Position numbers and translations under genes: made by a program. Shown piece by piece: positions 12,765 through 25,229 of a DNA stretch of 64,000 nucleotides. Source of the stretch: Trichormus sp. ATA11-4-KO1 (GTDB lineage: Bacteria; Cyanobacteriota; Cyanobacteriia; Cyanobacteriales; Nostocaceae); NCBI GenBank assembly GCA_019358915.1, contig JAHHIM010000036.1, positions 384,001-448,000 of the forward strand, in the 5' to 3' direction. How positions within the stretch are numbered: position 1 is the stretch's first letter; each line of letters begins with the position of its first letter. The notes beneath the pieces were generated by a model, which saw only the letters and a list, made by a program, of their open reading frames with translations, was not told the DNA's origin and did not search any database.

Positions 12765-13520
12765 TCAGTTCAGTAAATAATTAGGTAAAGATGAATTGAG
12801 TAAAGAGTCTAGTTCTTTAACTAGCCAATTTTGAAACATATTATTGAGAACTTCTAAATATTTTTCAGGTGTTAATTCAGCAGGAAGGAACTCTTCCACC
12901 ATTAAAAGATGATAACCTTGCTCAGTTTTTAAAGGGCCTATCAACTGTTTAGGTGGTGTTCTAAATACGATCGCGGCTATATCTAGCTGGAGAGAAAAAC
13001 GATAGATTCTTCCTTCATAACCGCACTTTTGCCTGCGTTGAGCATCAATATTATAGAGGTGAGCGGCATCATAAAAACTGATTTCTTGATCTTCTATTTG
13101 ATAGTAAATTTCTTGAGCCAGTTTTTCAGAGTCAACAATGATTTGATAGAGAATTACCTGCTCAAACTCTAGGCGCTTGTGGATAAAAAACTGTTCTACT
13201 TCTTGAGCAAATAATGCTTGAGCTAATTTTTGTGACAACAGGCGATCGCGAATTTTCATTTCCCAGTCACTGGGAGTAACTAATTGATCCGTTAACCATG
13301 CTAGTGTGTCTGTAGCTTTCTCTAATCGCTGTTCGCGGCGCTGGCGATTCGCTTCAGCCTCAATCTCGGCTGTCGTCACAGTTATTCCTCTTTCCTCAGC
13401 TACATGCCATATCACCTTATCAAATAGAATTTTTTGATATACTTCCTTTAAACTCATTTCTTTTTTGAGGAAGTTGATAATTTCTTCGGCTTCAATAACT
13501 ATTTTAGAAAGGTCACTCAT
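12765..13520 (-). CDS. PpiC/parvulin-type peptidylprolyl isomerase of the kind linked to peptide exporters
   Basis: EISFYDAAHLY...GYEG...IGPLKTEQGYHLLMVEE rotamase pattern; downstream of hetC-hetP. Confidence 0.8.
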   Translation of the reverse strand: MSDLSKIVIEAEEIINFLKKEMSLKEVYQKILFDKVIWHVAEERGITVTTAEIEAEANRQRREQRLEKATDTLAWLTDQLVTPSDWEMKIRDRLLSQKLAQALFAQEVEQFFIHKRLEFEQVILYQIIVDSEKLAQEIYYQIEDQEISFYDAAHLYNIDAQRRQKCGYEGRIYRFSLQLDIAAIVFRTPPKQLIGPLKTEQGYHLLMVEEFLPAELTPEKYLEVLNNMFQNWLVKELDSLLNSSLPNYLLN

Positions 13521-13906
13521 TGGTATTTAGGTTGTTAAATAACCAGTTAAACAAGGTTTTAGTTCATCGCTTTGAAAAATATAAAAAACTGGAAGCTAAA
13601 AAAGTTAAGTAGCTTCCAGAAATTACTATATAAATTGTAAACTTATAAAGCGGAAAGAATCCTATTTGGGAGAAAAAGGATTAAGATATTTGCAAGAAAA
13701 GCGTAAGTTCTATCAGCCATAACAATGATGGAATCGTCACTTTTTCCTTTTTCGCTGCTGGTGAAGGTGTTAATCGTCAGCTTTTAAACTCAAATAACAC
13801 CAACTTCAGCCAAGAAGCTCTATCCAGTTTCCCCACGTTTAGAGACTCGATAGAAAACATTCAAAGTTAGGATGGCGGGGAGACGCTAATCTAACTTTTA
13901 TTTGCT

Positions 13907-14044
13907 TTAACTTCTGCCGAAAAAAGAACCACCATTCGCAACGGTCACATCGTTATTTTTGGTTGAGGAGTTGTTTACTCCCTGATATACTGACTGCTTC
14001 AGCAACTGCAATCAGTTATATGTGTTTCATAGTCAGATAATCAT
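13907..14044 (-). pseudogene. decayed double-glycine-leader peptide gene at the patC position
   Basis: Reads MII* then, frameshifted, MKHI*LIAVAEAVSISG; resembles MIISD..E...SGG leaders; lies directly downstream of hetP; 3' boundary uncertain. Confidence 0.45.
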
Positions 14045-14231
14045 TGATTTTATCGTTGTAAATTAATTTTTTTCATCACCTCTTGTTGAGTAGTTATTTA
14101 TAATCTATAGGATCTTGTTAGAAAATATTTGCCATTTTGGCAATAGTTTTCGTATTTAGGATGAAATACTTAAAATATAAATTTTTGAAAAACAAATTTT
14201 TTTAGCAGTTTATGCAACTGTAAAATTATAT

Positions 14232-14273
14232 AAAAAACCTACCATACTCATGAGAAATACATAGTATGGCAGG
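14232..14273 (-). terminator. intrinsic terminator after hetP
   Basis: Minus strand CCTGCCATACT...AGTATGGTAGG followed by TTTTTT. Confidence 0.65.
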
Positions 14274-14326
14274 CGTTAACACTCCCAATAATCTGTGAAG
14301 CATGATCTATTAATGCAATAGATTGT

Positions 14327-14797
14327 TTAATTAAATTCACAGATTTTCAATGATTCATCTTCAGCTTTTTCAGGGTTTAATGCCAATGATATGGGTTGAG
14401 ATTCGTGCATTTGCTTTGCCGATGAATTATTTAAACTACCACCACGAATTTCTCTGGTTTGATTTCCCACTACTTCAAGATAAGCCAGGTCTTTAATTTT
14501 ACTTAAGCAACCTGGTGAACTCTTCATATCAGACCTTTTACTAGCCGACGGTTGAGCAGTTTTCATACTTTCGTTATGCTGTTGGTGCGTTCTGCTAACT
14601 TGGGTGTTTTCTTTCAGCAATCGGTTATAAGTGCGGTAAGGAATGTAATGTAAAGGATTATAACCAACTATGCGTAGCATTAAAACACATGCCCAGGAAT
14701 ACTTTCCGGCAAGAATCGCTTCCACTATTTGATCGAATTGTTGAGGATTCATTGCTTTATTGAAATTGCTACTAATGCCAGGAATATCTTGATTCAT
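14327..14797 (-). CDS. hetP: heterocyst commitment protein HetP
   Basis: [39 protein letters not shown]; 156 aa; downstream of hetC. Confidence 0.93.
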
Positions 14798-15376
14798 AGT
14801 GTTAGTTATCTTTGATGAAGCTAGATCAATTTCGTCAGTTTTTGGTGTTGCAGTTGACTTGCAGTTACTGAGTTATTCTCGGAAATATATTGGCTGTGTG
14901 GCGAATGAGGCGATCGCACTAGTAAAGCTTGATGCCTGCTGAGGAATTAGATAGTAGTAAAAATAAAAATCATTGAGCTTCATTTCTAAACTTTCCCCTT
15001 GATTTGAGGTTTCTACTGCATTTGACTTGATAATTTCCATGAGTGGAAACAAGTCTGTATGTAGCTCGTGGTAGATGCAGTTTTGACTTCTTGTGAATGT
15101 CTGGTCTATTAATCTAAATTTACTGACCCTGATCATTTATTGTATATTTTCTGCTCGGCAATTAAGAGCAATTTTGGATAAATTTATTTGTTTTTACTTA
15201 AGTATGAAAACTTATTTATCCAATAATACTAAGAATAGCTTTCGTATTTATACTATTCTATCTCATTAATCTTATTCGTCATTATAGCATTGCTACCAGT
15301 CAAATTTACTGAACTTTTTTTCATGTTATTTCTTTGTTGTGCAACTTTGTTTTTTGTCACTTATTTACTAAGAGAT

Positions 15377-15393
15377 GAGGGGTTTAACCCCCT
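15377..15393. promoter_or_regulatory. HetR-binding inverted repeat upstream of hetP
   Basis: GAGGGGTTTAACCCCCT (GGG-N5-CCC core), close to the known hetP site GAGGGGTCTAACCCCTC; about 580 bp upstream of the hetP ATG. Confidence 0.8.
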
Positions 15394-15865
15394 ATTGGTA
15401 ATATCTTTGAGGTTTTGAATTTAATTAATCTACTAGAAAAATTTACCATCAAATAAGTTAATAAACAACTGTTTGATAAAACAAAAGAAATATCATTAAA
15501 AACTCACCCAGGATTCTTTGGTTAGAGTTATTGAGAATTGTTTTCCCTGATATTGATGATATTTATACCGCCAAAAGCTGAATATACAAGCCTAATAGCT
15601 ATTAGGGCTGGCGACTTCGCTGAATCTTGAAGCAGTCACAGTTAAAAAATTAGGGTAATTAATGTTTTATGTTATGATCTATTGACTTATTGAAGATTTA
15701 TAAATTATCTATAACCAAACATCCATTGAGGATATTTGAAAAAAATATGTAGCAGTCTTAGTCTGCATATCATTGATGGAATGCAGCGAATCAGAGAGTT
15801 TTATTCAGTGTGTCTGGAAGCAAATTTATAGGTAGATTGAGCTTTAACCACCTGAGCCAGGTGAA

Positions 15866-18800
15866 TTATAGTTGTAATTGCAGTTGAGCTAAGTTGTAAT
15901 AAAGACCAGCAATTTCCATTAATTCTTGATGAGTACCTTGTTCAACAAGAAAACCTCTGTCTAGGACGAGTATGTAGTCAGCTTGACGCACACTAGAGAA
16001 ACGATGGGAGATGATAAAAGTGGTACGATCGCTACTCATCCTGGTTAAGTTCTGTTGCAAGCAGAGTTCCGATTCTGCATCTAGTCCGCTAGTCGCTTCA
16101 TCCAAAATCAAAATACCTGGATTTCTAATCAATGCGCGGGCGATCGCAATTTTTTGTTTTTGTCCACCAGAAAGCGTTACACCCCTCTCCCCTACCTCGG
16201 TGTTGTAACCGAAGGGTAATGCTTGAATAAAGGCATGTGCTTCAGCTAACTTTGCAGCTGCGATCGCCTGCTCTAAGCTAAACTCCGAACTGTATAAGGT
16301 GATGTTTTCTAAAATGGTTCCAGAAAACAAAAAACAATCTTGCGGTACAAAACCCAACTGACTCCGCAACGACTGGAGAGAAACCAGCGAAATATCTTGC
16401 CCATCAATGAAAATCCTTCCAGCGTGGGGACGATATAAACCAGCCAGCAAATTCGCTAAAGTACTTTTACCTGAACCACTCTGACCGATAATGCCAATAG
16501 TCTGCTGGGGTTGCACTTGAAAAGAGATATTTTGTAAAGTGTTGCCGTTTTCGGGGTTATATCGGCAGCAAACATTTTCAAAATGCACTTCACCGCGAAT
16601 CGGAGGCATTACCAGTAGCGGTGTTGGGGAATTTTCTTCTGGCTGGGAAGCAAAGACATCCTCCAGCCTCTCCAGAGAAATCTGGATCTCTGGGAACTCA
16701 TCCCACAACCCCACCAATGCCAAAATGGCGATCGCAATATTACTAATAAGCAGATTAAAAGCGACAAACCTACCGAGTGTCATCTGCCCACTAATTACCA
16801 GATTTGCCCCAAACCACAAAATAACTGTGCTACCAACGTGATTAAGCAAACTTCTGGTGAGTTGCAAGTTACTCACCAACTTTCGTCCCCGCAACCGCAC
16901 CTTCAACATATTCTGAAAACGCTCTTGCCAATGCATCTGCACTGGGTATTCAGCTGCTGCGGTTTTGACTATAGCAATACCAGTAATCATTTCGCGCATC
17001 GAGGTGTTATGTCCTGCCGATTCCTGTAAAATTTCCTGCGACGCTTTTTTGAGGAATGGACTTGTGCCGATAGTCAAGATTACAACTAGTAGCATCCAAA
17101 CCAGTACCAGGAGAGTCAATTGCCAGTTGTAATCAGCCATTAACCCTAGGTATATCACCACCATGAAGGTGTCTATCGTGCCATTGATAGCTTGACGAGT
17201 CAGAAATAATTGGATTTTGCGGTTTTCTTGGACGCGGCTAATAATGTCTTCTACTTGACGCGAGGCAAAAAATTGCCACGGCAACTGCAACGTATAGTTA
17301 ATGAAACGACCAATCAAGTTAATATCGATTCGATTGGCAACATACTCCAATAAGTATTGACGCTGTGCTGTTAAAACAGCACGCCAGATACCTAAACCCA
17401 GGAAGCTGACAGCAAAAATATTCAGCGTATCAAAGTCTTTCAGGGGCATTACTTGGTCGATTACCACCTGAGTAAATAAGGGAGTCGCTAGCCCAAACAC
17501 TTGCACCAACATGGAAGCGAGAATAATTTGACCGAGTAATTTACGGTAATGCCCCAATGTGTGCCAATAACGACCCAGAGAAATTTTTTCGTTCTTGAGA
17601 TTATAAAAATCTGCGGTGGGGTTTAAAAGTAGGGCGTATCCTGTCCAACTAGCGACAAACTCCGGACGTGAAAGCCAGCGCTTACCGATGGCTGGATCGG
17701 AAATCAATAAGCGATCGCTTTTGACTCGCCAGACAACAACATAGTGAATTCCTTGCCAATGAGCAATCCAAGGATTTGGATCAGCATCTAACTTATCTAA
17801 ACTTGCCCGTACTGGTAGCACATCATATCCCAAGGTGGCAGCTGCGGCGGCTAAATTTTGCAGAGATGCACCCATGCGGTCTACCTGTGCTAAATTTCGC
17901 AGGGTGTAAAGGTTCAAGCGTTTACCCCAGTACTGACAAACCATCGCCAAACACGCCGCACCACAATCCGATGAACTTTGCTGTTGAATGCAGGGATAAG
18001 AACGCCATAACTTATTTCTTAACCGAGGCTGGTTTTCCGCTTGAGGAAAGTTAATTTCTTCCACATTTGGCAGAAGTTCCGCTTCTGTTGTTGATTCTGC
18101 TTGTTCCTGATCCCCAATCTCCAGTGCCCAATCTCTATTGTGATGTGGAACAGGAAGTGGTATTTGGGTTATTGGTGCGCTTTCTGCTGCTGCTACTGGT
18201 GCAGATTTTTCCGGAAATAACTGCGGTGCGATCGCTCTGACTAATTCCCAATTATTTGTTGACAAATGGTAAACTAACAAATCGGTTTCGGCAATCCCAT
18301 CAGTCGGTGTGATATCAGGATATCCCCAGCTATCGCCTATCTGTAGTGAGTTGTCAATTTTGCCCCCCGCCAGCCAAAAGCGTCCCTTAACTGAAGAAGT
18401 TGTTTCTACTAGAGATGAACCAGCCGTGATCTTAGTAGCTACGAGGTAGGGTAGTAATTCTCGCAGAGTGGAACTAGTAAGCGATCGCAACTCGGTATAA
18501 CTTTTAAAAAAAATCAGTGCTTGCTGTTTACAAGTTAACTGCTGTAAATAACTTTTTAATTTAGGTAGGCGCTGCAACCACTGTTTTAAATCAGAAATAG
18601 CTATTTGCGCTATACAACCTGCACTAGCTGCGATCGCTCGGTATGGTAAAGGTTGATGACAAAATAAATGATCTGCCCCAAAAGTTTGTTCTGTTAATAG
18701 CAACTGTGTAGAAACTTCTCGTTTCAAAGTTGCATCAAAACCCAATAAACGCACGCGACCATGACAAACTAAGTAAAGAAAATCTTCAGTGTCGCCATTG

Positions 18801-18997
18801 AGAGCATAGCTACTTAGTTCATCACCTAGTTGAAACTCACGTATCACCCAAAATTGGCTAAAGTCTGATATGATACTTGTATCCCCTACAACTATCTTCA
18901 AAAATTTGAGGATAGCCGCTTCTGGAGTAGGAGATTGTTGGTTATTGGTATCTTTTTGCATATCTCCCTGAACTCTGAACGACAAAGAGGGGTTCAT
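15866..18997 (-). CDS. hetC: HetC: C39 peptidase-containing ABC exporter with N-terminal cNMP-like domains
   Basis: QQSSSDCGAACL, HYVVV and ISDP catalytic motifs; TM domain; GQSGSGKST, LSGGQ, ILDE; 1043 aa; upstream of hetP. Confidence 0.92.
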   Translation of the reverse strand: MNPSLSFRVQGDMQKDTNNQQSPTPEAAILKFLKIVVGDTSIISDFSQFWVIREFQLGDELSSYALNGDTEDFLYLVCHGRVRLLGFDATLKREVSTQLLLTEQTFGADHLFCHQPLPYRAIAASAGCIAQIAISDLKQWLQRLPKLKSYLQQLTCKQQALIFFKSYTELRSLTSSTLRELLPYLVATKITAGSSLVETTSSVKGRFWLAGGKIDNSLQIGDSWGYPDITPTDGIAETDLLVYHLSTNNWELVRAIAPQLFPEKSAPVAAAESAPITQIPLPVPHHNRDWALEIGDQEQAESTTEAELLPNVEEINFPQAENQPRLRNKLWRSYPCIQQQSSSDCGAACLAMVCQYWGKRLNLYTLRNLAQVDRMGASLQNLAAAAATLGYDVLPVRASLDKLDADPNPWIAHWQGIHYVVVWRVKSDRLLISDPAIGKRWLSRPEFVASWTGYALLLNPTADFYNLKNEKISLGRYWHTLGHYRKLLGQIILASMLVQVFGLATPLFTQVVIDQVMPLKDFDTLNIFAVSFLGLGIWRAVLTAQRQYLLEYVANRIDINLIGRFINYTLQLPWQFFASRQVEDIISRVQENRKIQLFLTRQAINGTIDTFMVVIYLGLMADYNWQLTLLVLVWMLLVVILTIGTSPFLKKASQEILQESAGHNTSMREMITGIAIVKTAAAEYPVQMHWQERFQNMLKVRLRGRKLVSNLQLTRSLLNHVGSTVILWFGANLVISGQMTLGRFVAFNLLISNIAIAILALVGLWDEFPEIQISLERLEDVFASQPEENSPTPLLVMPPIRGEVHFENVCCRYNPENGNTLQNISFQVQPQQTIGIIGQSGSGKSTLANLLAGLYRPHAGRIFIDGQDISLVSLQSLRSQLGFVPQDCFLFSGTILENITLYSSEFSLEQAIAAAKLAEAHAFIQALPFGYNTEVGERGVTLSGGQKQKIAIARALIRNPGILILDEATSGLDAESELCLQQNLTRMSSDRTTFIISHRFSSVRQADYILVLDRGFLVEQGTHQELMEIAGLYYNLAQLQLQL

Positions 18998-22501: not shown

Positions 22502-22900
22502 GACTATGCTGTAAATTAGTAAATAAACATAACAAAGAGCTATATATTGTTGAGGGAAGAGATGGACAAGCGATTGATCCTTCTGGCAATCCTCTTCTAC
22601 TTGATTAATATTGATAAGCTTGAAGAAATAACTGGATATGATTTCCTATCTAATCTTCCCTCTGAAATTCAAGAGGCAATTGAAGGGCGAAAATACCCTG
22701 ATATTCTAGAAGAAATTTATAATAAACGGCTTATGTGAGTTGGAGTCTGGAAAGTCGTAAATACGGCAATATGGTTAAACACCTTGGCCAAACCACAGCC
22801 TGAAACCCTTGCCATAGCTTGGGCGTTTTTAATTCACATAAGGCGTAATAAGGAAATTAAGATTAGACCCAGGTCTGCTTCTTTAATGGCTTCAACGACC
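22502..22900 (+). pseudogene. decayed NucA-like DNA/RNA non-specific endonuclease fragment (copy 1)
   Basis: DYA/KLVNKHNKELYIVEGRDG, then INIDKLEEITGYDFLSNLPSEIQEAIE; with the MITE removed the frame continues EIYNKEIKIRPRSASLMAST. Confidence 0.65.
22726..22846. mobile_element. 121-bp MITE with 16-bp TIRs and 5-bp TSD
   Basis: ACGGCTTATGTGAGTT / ACGCCTTATGTGAATT ends; AATAA at 22721-22725 and 22847-22851. Confidence 0.8.
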
Positions 22901-25229
22901 GGGGATTGCAGGAAGAGAAGGAGTAACTTTTAAAACTATAAGTTCAAAAGTTAGCGTTCCTGAAAGTATTTGGAAGGTTGTACTATTTCTAGATCGTCCT
23001 GGTCAAGGAATTTCCGACGTAACTAAAGATACCCTCGCTTTTGGTATTTATTTATCCAACACCCTTGATGTAAATGGTAAAGGGCAAGATCCTAATGACG
23101 ATTGGAAACAAAACTTTACACTTGATGGAAAGACATTTGGACTATTTAATGTTGAAGAACTTGAAAAGCTAACTGGGTATAATTTCCTGTCTAATATTCC
23201 CACAGAAATTCAGGAAGCAATTGAGAATCGAGATGTTAATGATATTTTGACAAAACTCAATGTCATTAAACCTCCGTCACTTATGGCTGCAACTGAAGAT
23301 GAACTAAAAATCTCCGAAAAAGGGACCGCTTTTGATAGTGCCATCGGGCATAGTAGTCTGGTAAACAAAATTCCCATAACTCCAAATAATGTTTGGAGCG
23401 ATGTAAGCATCTCTGAAGTTAGTTTTAATCAGAATAGCGAACTCAAAACTACTGATGTTAGCTCCACAGAAGGTAGCACGACTAGCGTTCATATGATTCA
23501 GGTCGGTTCCTCCCAAATCGGCTTCAGTCAAATCACACCAACTCAAGTTGGCGGAATACAAATTAGCATCCCTGACAATAGCGCGTTTCAACCAAGCGCT
23601 TTCCAAGGAAACACCAAACAAATCGGCTCCAGTCAAATCGGCTCGACACAGATCGGCTTGTCTCAAATAGGCTCCGCGCAAGTTGATATCTCTCAAAATA
23701 GCGCCTTCGAGGTCAATCGAACTGTCGAGGGGAACACCCTCAGATTGAATCAACTCAATCCCTCGAAAATCGCGCTCTCCATCAGCATACCGAGCCAACA
23801 ACTCCTCAGCAGTTATTTCCCAAGCCATGAATTAACCTCCAATTTCTTTTCCAATCTTAAATATAGTGTTAATAATATTTGGGGAGATTTACTCACATCG
23901 GAAACGCCCACCTTAAACATCTCCTTCCAAATCACCAACCTCCCCACCGGACAACTAGCCGAAGCCCAACTAACCCAATTCGACCCCCAAGGTCGCCCCA
24001 ACGGAGGCACAATCCTCATCGACCACGACGCTAACGGCTACTCGTGGTTTATCGACCCCACCCCGCTTGACAACAGCGAATTCACCACCTCCCTCACCGA
24101 CACAACCTACCGCGCCACCACAGGCGACGCATTCGGCAAATACGACCTGCTCACCACCATCCTCCACGAAACCGGACACCTACTAGGTATAATCTCCGGT
24201 AACCCAGGCTTCGACCGCTACATCCAAACCATCAACAGCACCAAAACCTTCATCGGCGATAACTTCACTGCCACCCTCACCCCAGACGGTAGCCACCTTG
24301 ACTCCCAGGTACACCCCTACGACCTGATGAATAACACCCTGTCCCCAGGCCTGCGTAAGCTACCATCATGGCTCAACCTGCAAATGATTAACGCCATCCG
24401 TAACACTACGGTAGCGCCAAGCAGTACAACACAACTAACAGCACCACTAACAGCAATCCTGCTTGCAGACATCACCAACGGCAACTTCAACTTTAGCGAC
24501 ACAACCAAACCCGAATACGGCTGGACAACCCGTGGTGCAGCCACCATCCTCAACCCCACAACCCTGTCCATTCAAACCAACCCCACCAACAGTACAATCC
24601 AACTAACCCCAGATGGCACAGTCACATACACCCCTAACCCCACCTTTGTCGGCATAGACACCTACACCTACACCATCACCGACACAGAAGGCTTAACATC
24701 TAATACTGCCACCGTCAACAATATAGCCCCAGTGATCACAGTAATTACAGGCGACACCACCACCACCGAAGGCACAACAGCCAACTTTAGTGCCACAGCA
24801 GTTGACCCTGGTGACGAACTTACCTACCTCTGGAACTTTGGCGACGGTTCACAACTGGTCGAAGGTGAAAACGTCACCCACACCTACACCGACAACGGCA
24901 CATACATCGCCACCCTGACTGTTATCGATAGTCTTGGCGTCAATAGCTTCCAAACCCTAGAAATCACCGTCAATCATGTCGCGCCTCGAGAAATTACCAA
25001 ACTCAAATTCGAGCAAAAACTACTCCATCTCAGAGTTTACGAAAATTCCCAACTAGTAGAACATGTTAAAGGCAGACAAAATCAACCAGTATCACCCCTA
25101 GCCTTTGACAGAATCCAAATACTCGCCCTCAACAACAATGGCCAATCCCAGATATTTGATGACATTACCTTCCATGATAGTGGAGAAGGTATTGGCACTA
25201 TAGAGATTCCAGTAACGCCACTGGGGTGA
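22887..25229 (+). pseudogene. 5'-truncated, internally deleted giant surface protein: NucA-like C-terminal half, QIG linker, HExxH metalloprotease-like domain, Ig-like and PKD domains
   Basis: Frame is open from 22887 with no start codon before the TTG at 23247; contains KVSVPESIWKVVLFLD...EELEKLTGYNFLSNIP, ILHETGHLLG, TVTYTPNPTFVGIDTYTYTI and YLWNFGDG; nuclease catalytic DRGH region absent. Confidence 0.75.
23304..23828 (-). CDS. pentapeptide repeat protein nested antisense in the giant gene
   Basis: AEELLARYADGERDF N-cap, A(D/N)Lxx repeats, GGAGG RBS 7 nt before the ATG. Confidence 0.85.
   Translation of the reverse strand: MAWEITAEELLARYADGERDFRGIELIQSEGVPLDSSIDLEGAILRDINLRGAYLRQADLCRADLTGADLFGVSLESAWLKRAIVRDANLYSANLSWCDLTEADLGGTDLNHMNASRATFCGANISSFEFAILIKTNFRDAYIAPNIIWSYGNFVYQTTMPDGTIKSGPFFGDF

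Follow-up and report, generated by a model that had tools for sequence, protein, structure and literature searches.

A pentapeptide-repeat gene nested antisense within nuclease-bearing giant genes of cyanobacteria: a putative immunity gene inside its proposed toxin gene

In a 64,000-nucleotide stretch of DNA from Trichormus sp. ATA11-4-KO1 (hereafter "the window"), a pentapeptide-repeat protein (PRP) gene lies on the minus strand, entirely inside a long open frame of the plus strand and in codon register with it. The initial annotation interpreted this as a fully embedded dual-coding segment of a giant nuclease/protease gene. The locus raises the question whether both strands are indeed maintained by selection, and what a PRP gene might be doing in the linker of a nuclease-bearing protein.

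The window locus and its copies in the same genome

The features of the locus, with the basis of each assignment, are the following.

23304..23828, minus strand: PRP gene, 174 aa, putative nuclease immunity protein, mosaic allele (ORF and Pfam)
23836..23840, minus strand: Shine-Dalgarno sequence GGAGG, with the ATG 7 nt further on (sequence read)
22887..25229, plus strand: open frame of 780 codons without a start; orphan fragment of a giant gene (ORF and comparison with the giant on contig C41)
22938..23303, plus strand: C-terminal part of a NucA-like nuclease, catalytic His motif missing (profile positions 175-291 of 295)
23304..23828, plus strand: host linker, rich in QIG/SQI, the antisense reading of the PRP gene (frame translation)
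23904..24410, plus strand: conserved downstream domain with HExxH (HETGH at 24165-24179), the constant 3' flank of the cassette; end approximate
24561..24971, plus strand: Big_9 and PKD domains, past an in-frame deletion near 24553 relative to C41 (Pfam)
22523..22738, plus strand: second, shorter NucA C-terminal remnant in another frame (profile positions 236-275)

The two overlapping frames are as first described: the minus-strand ORF has GGAGG 7 nt before its ATG and is identified as a PRP by Pfam (PF00805, E 4.4e-23), and the plus frame is open and codon-aligned with it throughout. None of the 19 Leu codons of the PRP gene is TTA or CTA and none of its 12 Ser codons is TCA. The probability of this absence is 7e-7 under the codon use of the genome (1604 ORFs of at least 350 aa) and 1e-4 to 2e-5 under that of the 27 standalone PRP genes of the same genome, none of which is free of these codons, so that the absence is beyond chance.

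The plus frame, which had been taken for a giant gene, turned out to be a remnant: it opens directly after a TAA at 22884, retains the last 40% of the nuclease while the catalytic half with its DRGH-type motif is gone, and has lost about 540 nt and its end relative to the C41 giant. A translated plus-strand product of the window copy was considered and rejected for lack of an evident start, as none of the five in-frame start codons up to 23830 is preceded by a Shine-Dalgarno sequence evident by eye. The label "protease" had no basis other than the HExxH motif, and the window copy gives no Pfam peptidase match. A promoter and terminator scan yielded six sites (4.7 expected) and no sigma-70-like promoter upstream of the PRP gene on the minus strand. 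No sequencing run contained half of the sequence words, and the contigs compared, from four of eight runs, all stem from other organisms. Two RNA runs that belong to a single study yielded contigs of 717 and 678 nt; these cover 23280-23865 of a relative (~91%) and little else, are unstranded and possibly DNA, and their uncovered parts are uninformative, which makes them a weak hint of expression.

The arrangement occurs three times in this genome: in the window, on contig C41 and on contig C65. The C41 copy (G000:C41) is a frame of 10,408 codons that encodes CARDB, Ig-like, RHS, nuclease and PKD domains and has its nested PRP in the corresponding position; the Pfam content is mostly of adhesin type (CARDB, He_PIG, Big_9, PKD), together with an RHS repeat and a weak Peptidase_M10 match. 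Its last ~20 codons lie at the contig end within an element that is repeated on five other contigs (G000:C41:32737-32866), and the C41 giant may thus itself be cut short. The C65 copy (G000:C65:228477-229568) is a remnant cassette with two nuclease stubs and a 180-aa PRP that represents a different allele (48% identical).

Compared with the C41 PRP in successive 75-nt segments, the window PRP shows 1, 0, 0, 0, 2, 34 and 30 mismatches, i.e., three differences in the first 375 nt and 64 in the last 150 nt, which resemble the giant at locus L031, to whose nested PRP the window PRP is 94% identical. The nuclease stub at 22905-23205 is nearly identical to C41. By these comparisons, the window copy is a mosaic. 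Since the first 375 nt differ from C41 at three positions only, the openness of the window plus frame is inherited; the copy is too recent for decay and is therefore no evidence in itself of present selection on the plus strand.

Two observations concern the surroundings. The spacer between the two nuclease stubs (22685-22904) has no second copy in the genome. At 12765-18997, 4-10 kb from the orphan cassette, lie three genes that we take to encode a PpiC-type protein, a HetP-like protein and a C39-peptidase ABC transporter; several giants are likewise followed by genes like these.

Nesting, codon use and selection among relatives

The query used to collect relatives was the conserved domain that follows the linker; the PRP was left out of the search. 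This domain was matched in 44 of 389 genomes of the family, 36 of 401 of the order and 9 of 401 in a sample of the phylum. Sixty matches, mostly long frames, together with six further loci (four duplicates), gave 62 distinct loci, of which 54 carry an in-register antisense PRP that starts about 25-65 nt before the downstream anchor, seven do not, and one gave no anchor. Wherever a complete NucA-like nuclease precedes the anchor, the PRP is there: 46 of 46 distinct loci, comprising 45 aligned loci and L157, where a degenerate Cys-rich PRP (~1100-1660) is nested at the usual place. Six of the seven loci without a PRP combine the anchor and a long upstream frame with no nuclease, and the seventh holds a nuclease stub; in five genomes with nuclease-free giants, no long frame contains a nuclease. 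Giant homologues with a complete nuclease thus keep the antisense ORF, and most also a candidate ribosome-binding site: a Shine-Dalgarno 4-mer precedes 30 of the 45 nested PRPs (24% and 11% of control windows), and 42 of the 45 start with ATG. At least two of them carry ordinary PRP gene names in public annotation.

The host frames of relatives also reach about 10,000 codons through the overlap. In 37 of the 45 aligned loci the host frame runs open as far as the examined DNA extends, and in the other eight it begins after an upstream stop. The giants were mostly chosen for long open frames, so that the absence of host stops is partly due to selection of the sample, and the relatives are not independent. 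In the less biased set of shorter-frame matches, a PRP was present in 18 of 20, and 19 of 21 PRP pieces were free of forbidden codons; these pieces are orphans, whose openness requires recent origin or reuse as an explanation.

Several loci depart from the simple form. L158 (G871:C41) has three different PRP genes in tandem downstream of a complete nuclease, and a single open host frame encloses them all. L198 and L153 (G335:C83) belong to one frame of 8,564 codons in which each of two nuclease domains has a nested PRP of its own behind it. The 10,758-codon giant at L136/L196 (G216:C1) lacks both nuclease and PRP, and its downstream domain, the same as elsewhere, is preceded by an RHS-like core and a toxin-like region; a 73-codon antisense ORF at L196:3257-3478 is a candidate partner. 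According to its record title, the L050 giant resides on a plasmid, and the neighbours of L031 are presumably partition-like genes. Behind three of the five giants checked lie what we take to be ABC-transporter/HlyD-like genes.

Codon use in the overlap is strictly limited on both strands, each of which completely avoids the stops of the other. A first codon count, restricted by a motif-based cut to 34 of 57 loci, was repeated on 45 loci: the nested PRPs use TTA/CTA for 0 of 961 Leu and TCA for 0 of 540 Ser, compared to 409 of 1208 Leu (34%) and 45 of 674 Ser in non-nested PRP relatives, and the host frame within the overlap uses forbidden codons for 0 of 341 Leu and 0 of 1421 Ser, compared to 470 of 990 and 153 of 849 in the adjacent nuclease (34 loci). 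Free PRPs, non-nested and standalone, use TTA/CTA at 34-40% and have an open antisense shadow in 1 of 43 and 0 of 27 cases; the nested PRPs, with a median identity of 37%, never use these codons.

What is conserved in the overlap differs between the strands. In three disjoint pairs of giants, simple counts of single-base changes (80 codons with multiple changes were set aside) gave 0.31 substitutions per site for doubly silent changes, 0.37 for changes silent in the PRP only and 0.051 for changes silent in the host only. Since PRP-silent changes are about as frequent as doubly silent ones and host-only-silent changes are rare, the PRP is conserved as a protein and the host linker is not. Correspondingly, the ratio of changes non-silent in both frames to those non-silent in the PRP only is 0.45 in the overlap and 0.48 in the single-coding control. 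In short orphans without the downstream flank, the host frame has acquired stops in 16 of 23, while the PRP is retained at a pN/pS of 0.15 (nine pairs). Hence, the proposal that both strands were under selection needs to be divided: the PRP is under purifying selection at the amino-acid level, and the host linker is merely kept stop-free. Dual coding as such holds in the intact giant relatives, where both frames are open beyond chance; by these counts, conserved dual coding in the family is real, and the window holds a remnant of it.

Co-variation of nuclease and PRP in nested and terminal architectures

The type of the nested PRP follows the type of the nuclease. PRP similarity correlates with that of the nuclease (Mantel r 0.55) and much less with that of the equally adjacent downstream domain (0.14), and the nearest neighbour of a PRP is shared with the nuclease in 19 of 45 loci and with the downstream domain in none of 45. 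The correlation with the nuclease falls to 0.33 once eight of the nine members of the largest clade are removed, and physical linkage alone would also make neighbours co-vary. In 26 pairs of loci, the downstream domain is 86-97% identical, compared to 28-43% for the nuclease and 29-47% for the PRP. Overall, the median identity is 36% for the nuclease and 59% for the flank. Judged from these identities, nuclease and PRP are exchanged as a pair while the flanks around them stay conserved.

The nuclease profile, used as a query in turn, matched 91 of 251 genomes of the order and yielded further long frames. From these, 20 loci were picked by hand, with 29 nuclease ends, of which 27 are terminal (some of them stubs) and two internal with a nested PRP. 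The nearest downstream PRP lies on the opposite strand in 25 of the 27 terminal cases, as near as 40-730 nt and often within arrays; the exceptions are one nuclease without a PRP within 2.2 kb and one with a same-strand PRP. Orphan arrays hold up to 5-6 different PRPs. NuiA was not matched in any of the 20 loci; behind standalone nucA, nuiA lies tail-to-tail in three of four loci, including that of this genome. Nested and terminal nucleases are intermixed on a quick unrooted tree, which forces at least nine changes of architecture. PRP type carried over between the two architectures: when pairs were matched across them, the cognate PRP ranked in the top three of 45 for 10 of 17 and fifth or worse for seven of 17. 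Closeness to a nested nuclease showed no trend with TTA/CTA use (rho -0.10, p 0.71, 17 pairs).

The nucleases are NucA-like and of the His-Me finger type with a DRGH-type motif; among 45 aligned domains, the catalytic G-H is invariant and the metal-binding Asn and Glu are present in at least 90%, and the best PDB match is 2o3b/1zm8 (E 2e-80). The nested PRP has the tandem A(D/N)Lxx repeats of the family's beta-helix, and the model of the C41 PRP (pLDDT 92.6) finds its best fold matches among PRPs, including MfpA, Qnr and AlbG. The C41 host linker was modelled at pLDDT below 50 over residues 74-287 of the modelled piece. A folded solenoid on the host strand was rejected, because the linker evolves freely at the amino-acid level and has no confident fold. 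All 45 nested PRPs are net acidic, and their N-terminus is not strongly hydrophobic. As the nuclease domains have a net acidic charge as well (median -11), a simple DNA-mimic model fits poorly. Complex prediction for the C41 nuclease and its PRP scored 0.00 in two runs, which counts neither for nor against an interaction.

A putative toxin-immunity system and competing explanations

Taken together, we consider it likely that the giants are polymorphic nuclease toxins and that the PRP gene nested within the toxin gene confers immunity. The initial annotation had offered a partner, an immunity or a regulatory role for the nested gene; among these, immunity is best supported. Cyanobacterial surface giants of about 10,000 aa would bear an internal, highly variable NucA-like nuclease that acts as an antibacterial toxin, and the cognate inhibitor would be a cytoplasmic PRP whose gene lies on the other strand, downstream of the nuclease and tail-to-tail with it. 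Provided that both strands are translated and the giant is secreted, its frame would continue past the nuclease and read the inhibitor gene backwards, giving an unstructured linker with the sole constraint of remaining stop-free. Recombination in the conserved flanks would exchange nuclease and inhibitor as one cassette. The immunity gene would sit inside the toxin gene because the toxin is internal, the flanks are constant on both sides, and a single recombination must bring both. The window would then hold an orphan cassette, with a dead nuclease stub, the intact inhibitor gene of a non-resident allele and the downstream flank; its PRP might protect against a nuclease allele other than that of the resident giant, and the cassette may serve as a recombination donor. 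With somewhat less assurance, we favour the generalization that this is a widespread cyanobacterial system, in which PRPs provide allele-specific nuclease immunity, lie antisense inside the toxin gene as part of one in-frame swap cassette, and persist as orphans that form a recombinable reservoir.

Alternatively, the overlap could be real and the PRP a chaperone, a secretion helper or an indirect protector that hitch-hikes with the nuclease, e.g., as a gyrase-binding DNA mimic like MfpA or Qnr. The known functions of PRPs, as given in the available part of a review, are gyrase protection and others rather than nuclease immunity (PMC8145042), PRPs are also known as T6SS accessory proteins (judging from the title of a reference), and the fold matches include MfpA, Qnr and AlbG. 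However, neither a chaperone nor a general protector would explain the allele-specific co-variation, the orphan arrays of several different PRPs, or the continued selection on the PRP after loss of the nuclease, and we regard this explanation as unlikely. That the PRP strand alone is functional, the plus-strand reading being no more than the shadow of the antisense gene and the "giant" either two separate proteins or a fusion that is not translated, appears very improbable: it is largely true of the window copy alone, whose plus frame lacks a start, and it agrees with the missing linker fold and with host amino acids that evolve in the overlap as in a non-coding shadow, but free PRPs hardly ever leave such a shadow open, nested PRPs never use TTA/CTA, and frames of 10,000 codons cross the overlap.

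We give least credence, and very little, to the idea that the giant is no weapon but a nuclease-adhesin for biofilms or DNA scavenging, with a PRP that guards against the cell's own nuclease only. Adhesin-type domains do dominate the giants, and NucA/NuiA is described as a self-protection pair in the consulted portion of PMC13522737, yet self-protection gives no reason for the polymorphism of the nuclease relative to its flank, nor for the hoarding of non-cognate PRPs.

In the usual form of a polymorphic toxin system, the toxin is followed by the immunity gene on the same strand. The cyanobacterial arrangement differs in that the toxin is internal rather than C-terminal in the nested form (it is terminal in 27 of the 29 ends of the second set), that the partner is encoded on the other strand (all 46 nested cases and 25 of 27 terminal ones), and that the nested partner is located inside the toxin gene. 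Shared with polymorphic toxin systems, as outlined in the available sections of Zhang et al. (2012; PMC3482391), are a constant body, a variable toxin domain, an adjacent co-varying partner, orphan cassettes and strings of partner genes. The same sections list Tox-NucA as a toxin family, argue that one recombination event must unite toxin and immunity gene, and call such systems relatively rare in cyanobacteria; the word "pentapeptide" is absent from 300,000 of the 357,715 characters of that paper. The Anabaena pair NucA/NuiA (PF01223/PF07924) has the same nuclease family and an inhibitor gene tail-to-tail on the opposite strand, but here the partner is a PRP instead of NuiA, the nuclease is a domain of a giant, and the pair is polymorphic.

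PRP-like genes near nuclease-type toxins appear in two further sources: YjbI-like PRPs beside GH-E toxins (PMC5714182), and the putative immunity protein Tsi6a, which was likened to an annotated PRP (bioRxiv 10.64898/2026.07.13.738213). In both cases the toxin family and secretion system differ, and the accessible parts of these sources describe neither an overlap nor a test of immunity. Whole protein genes inside another gene on the opposite strand are represented by olg1/olg2 of Pseudomonas aeruginosa (PMC8850804) and by asa, laoB and ano (PMC7457138). These are described, in the portions available, as young or novel ORFs, whereas the PRP embedded here is a member of an established family; it is the partner under stronger constraint, and its free-standing relatives serve as a natural control. 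The full-text literature searched, outside which most subscription papers lie, described neither the arrangement seen here nor any toxin gene with its own immunity gene nested inside, and the parts seen of PMC12419801, PMC11481896 and PMC10933656 held nothing bearing on the arrangement.

The functions of cyanobacterial PRPs were called almost completely unknown by a 2021 review, as far as its available text goes (PMC8145042), and the proposed system offers a testable function for a large subfamily of them. It also provides an unusually well-controlled example of a fully embedded bacterial gene, in which the same family occurs nested and free with forbidden Leu codons at 0% and 34%, and a possible reason for the persistence of the overlap: an internal toxin and its antidote would be swapped together only if the antidote lies between the same flanks. 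It would further point to warfare between strains of cyanobacteria, a group in which systems of this type were called rare.

Two loci show what may be mobile or repeated DNA next to the cassettes. At L033:7635-11426, five different PRP cassettes are packed into 3.8 kb, several of which open at a similar short element with a reading like LMLGFVPQPNL, a possible insertion site that we take to be a dispersed repeat of the Nostocales. At L023:570-1241, a transposase gene, presumably of the REP-associated type, directly precedes an orphan downstream fragment.
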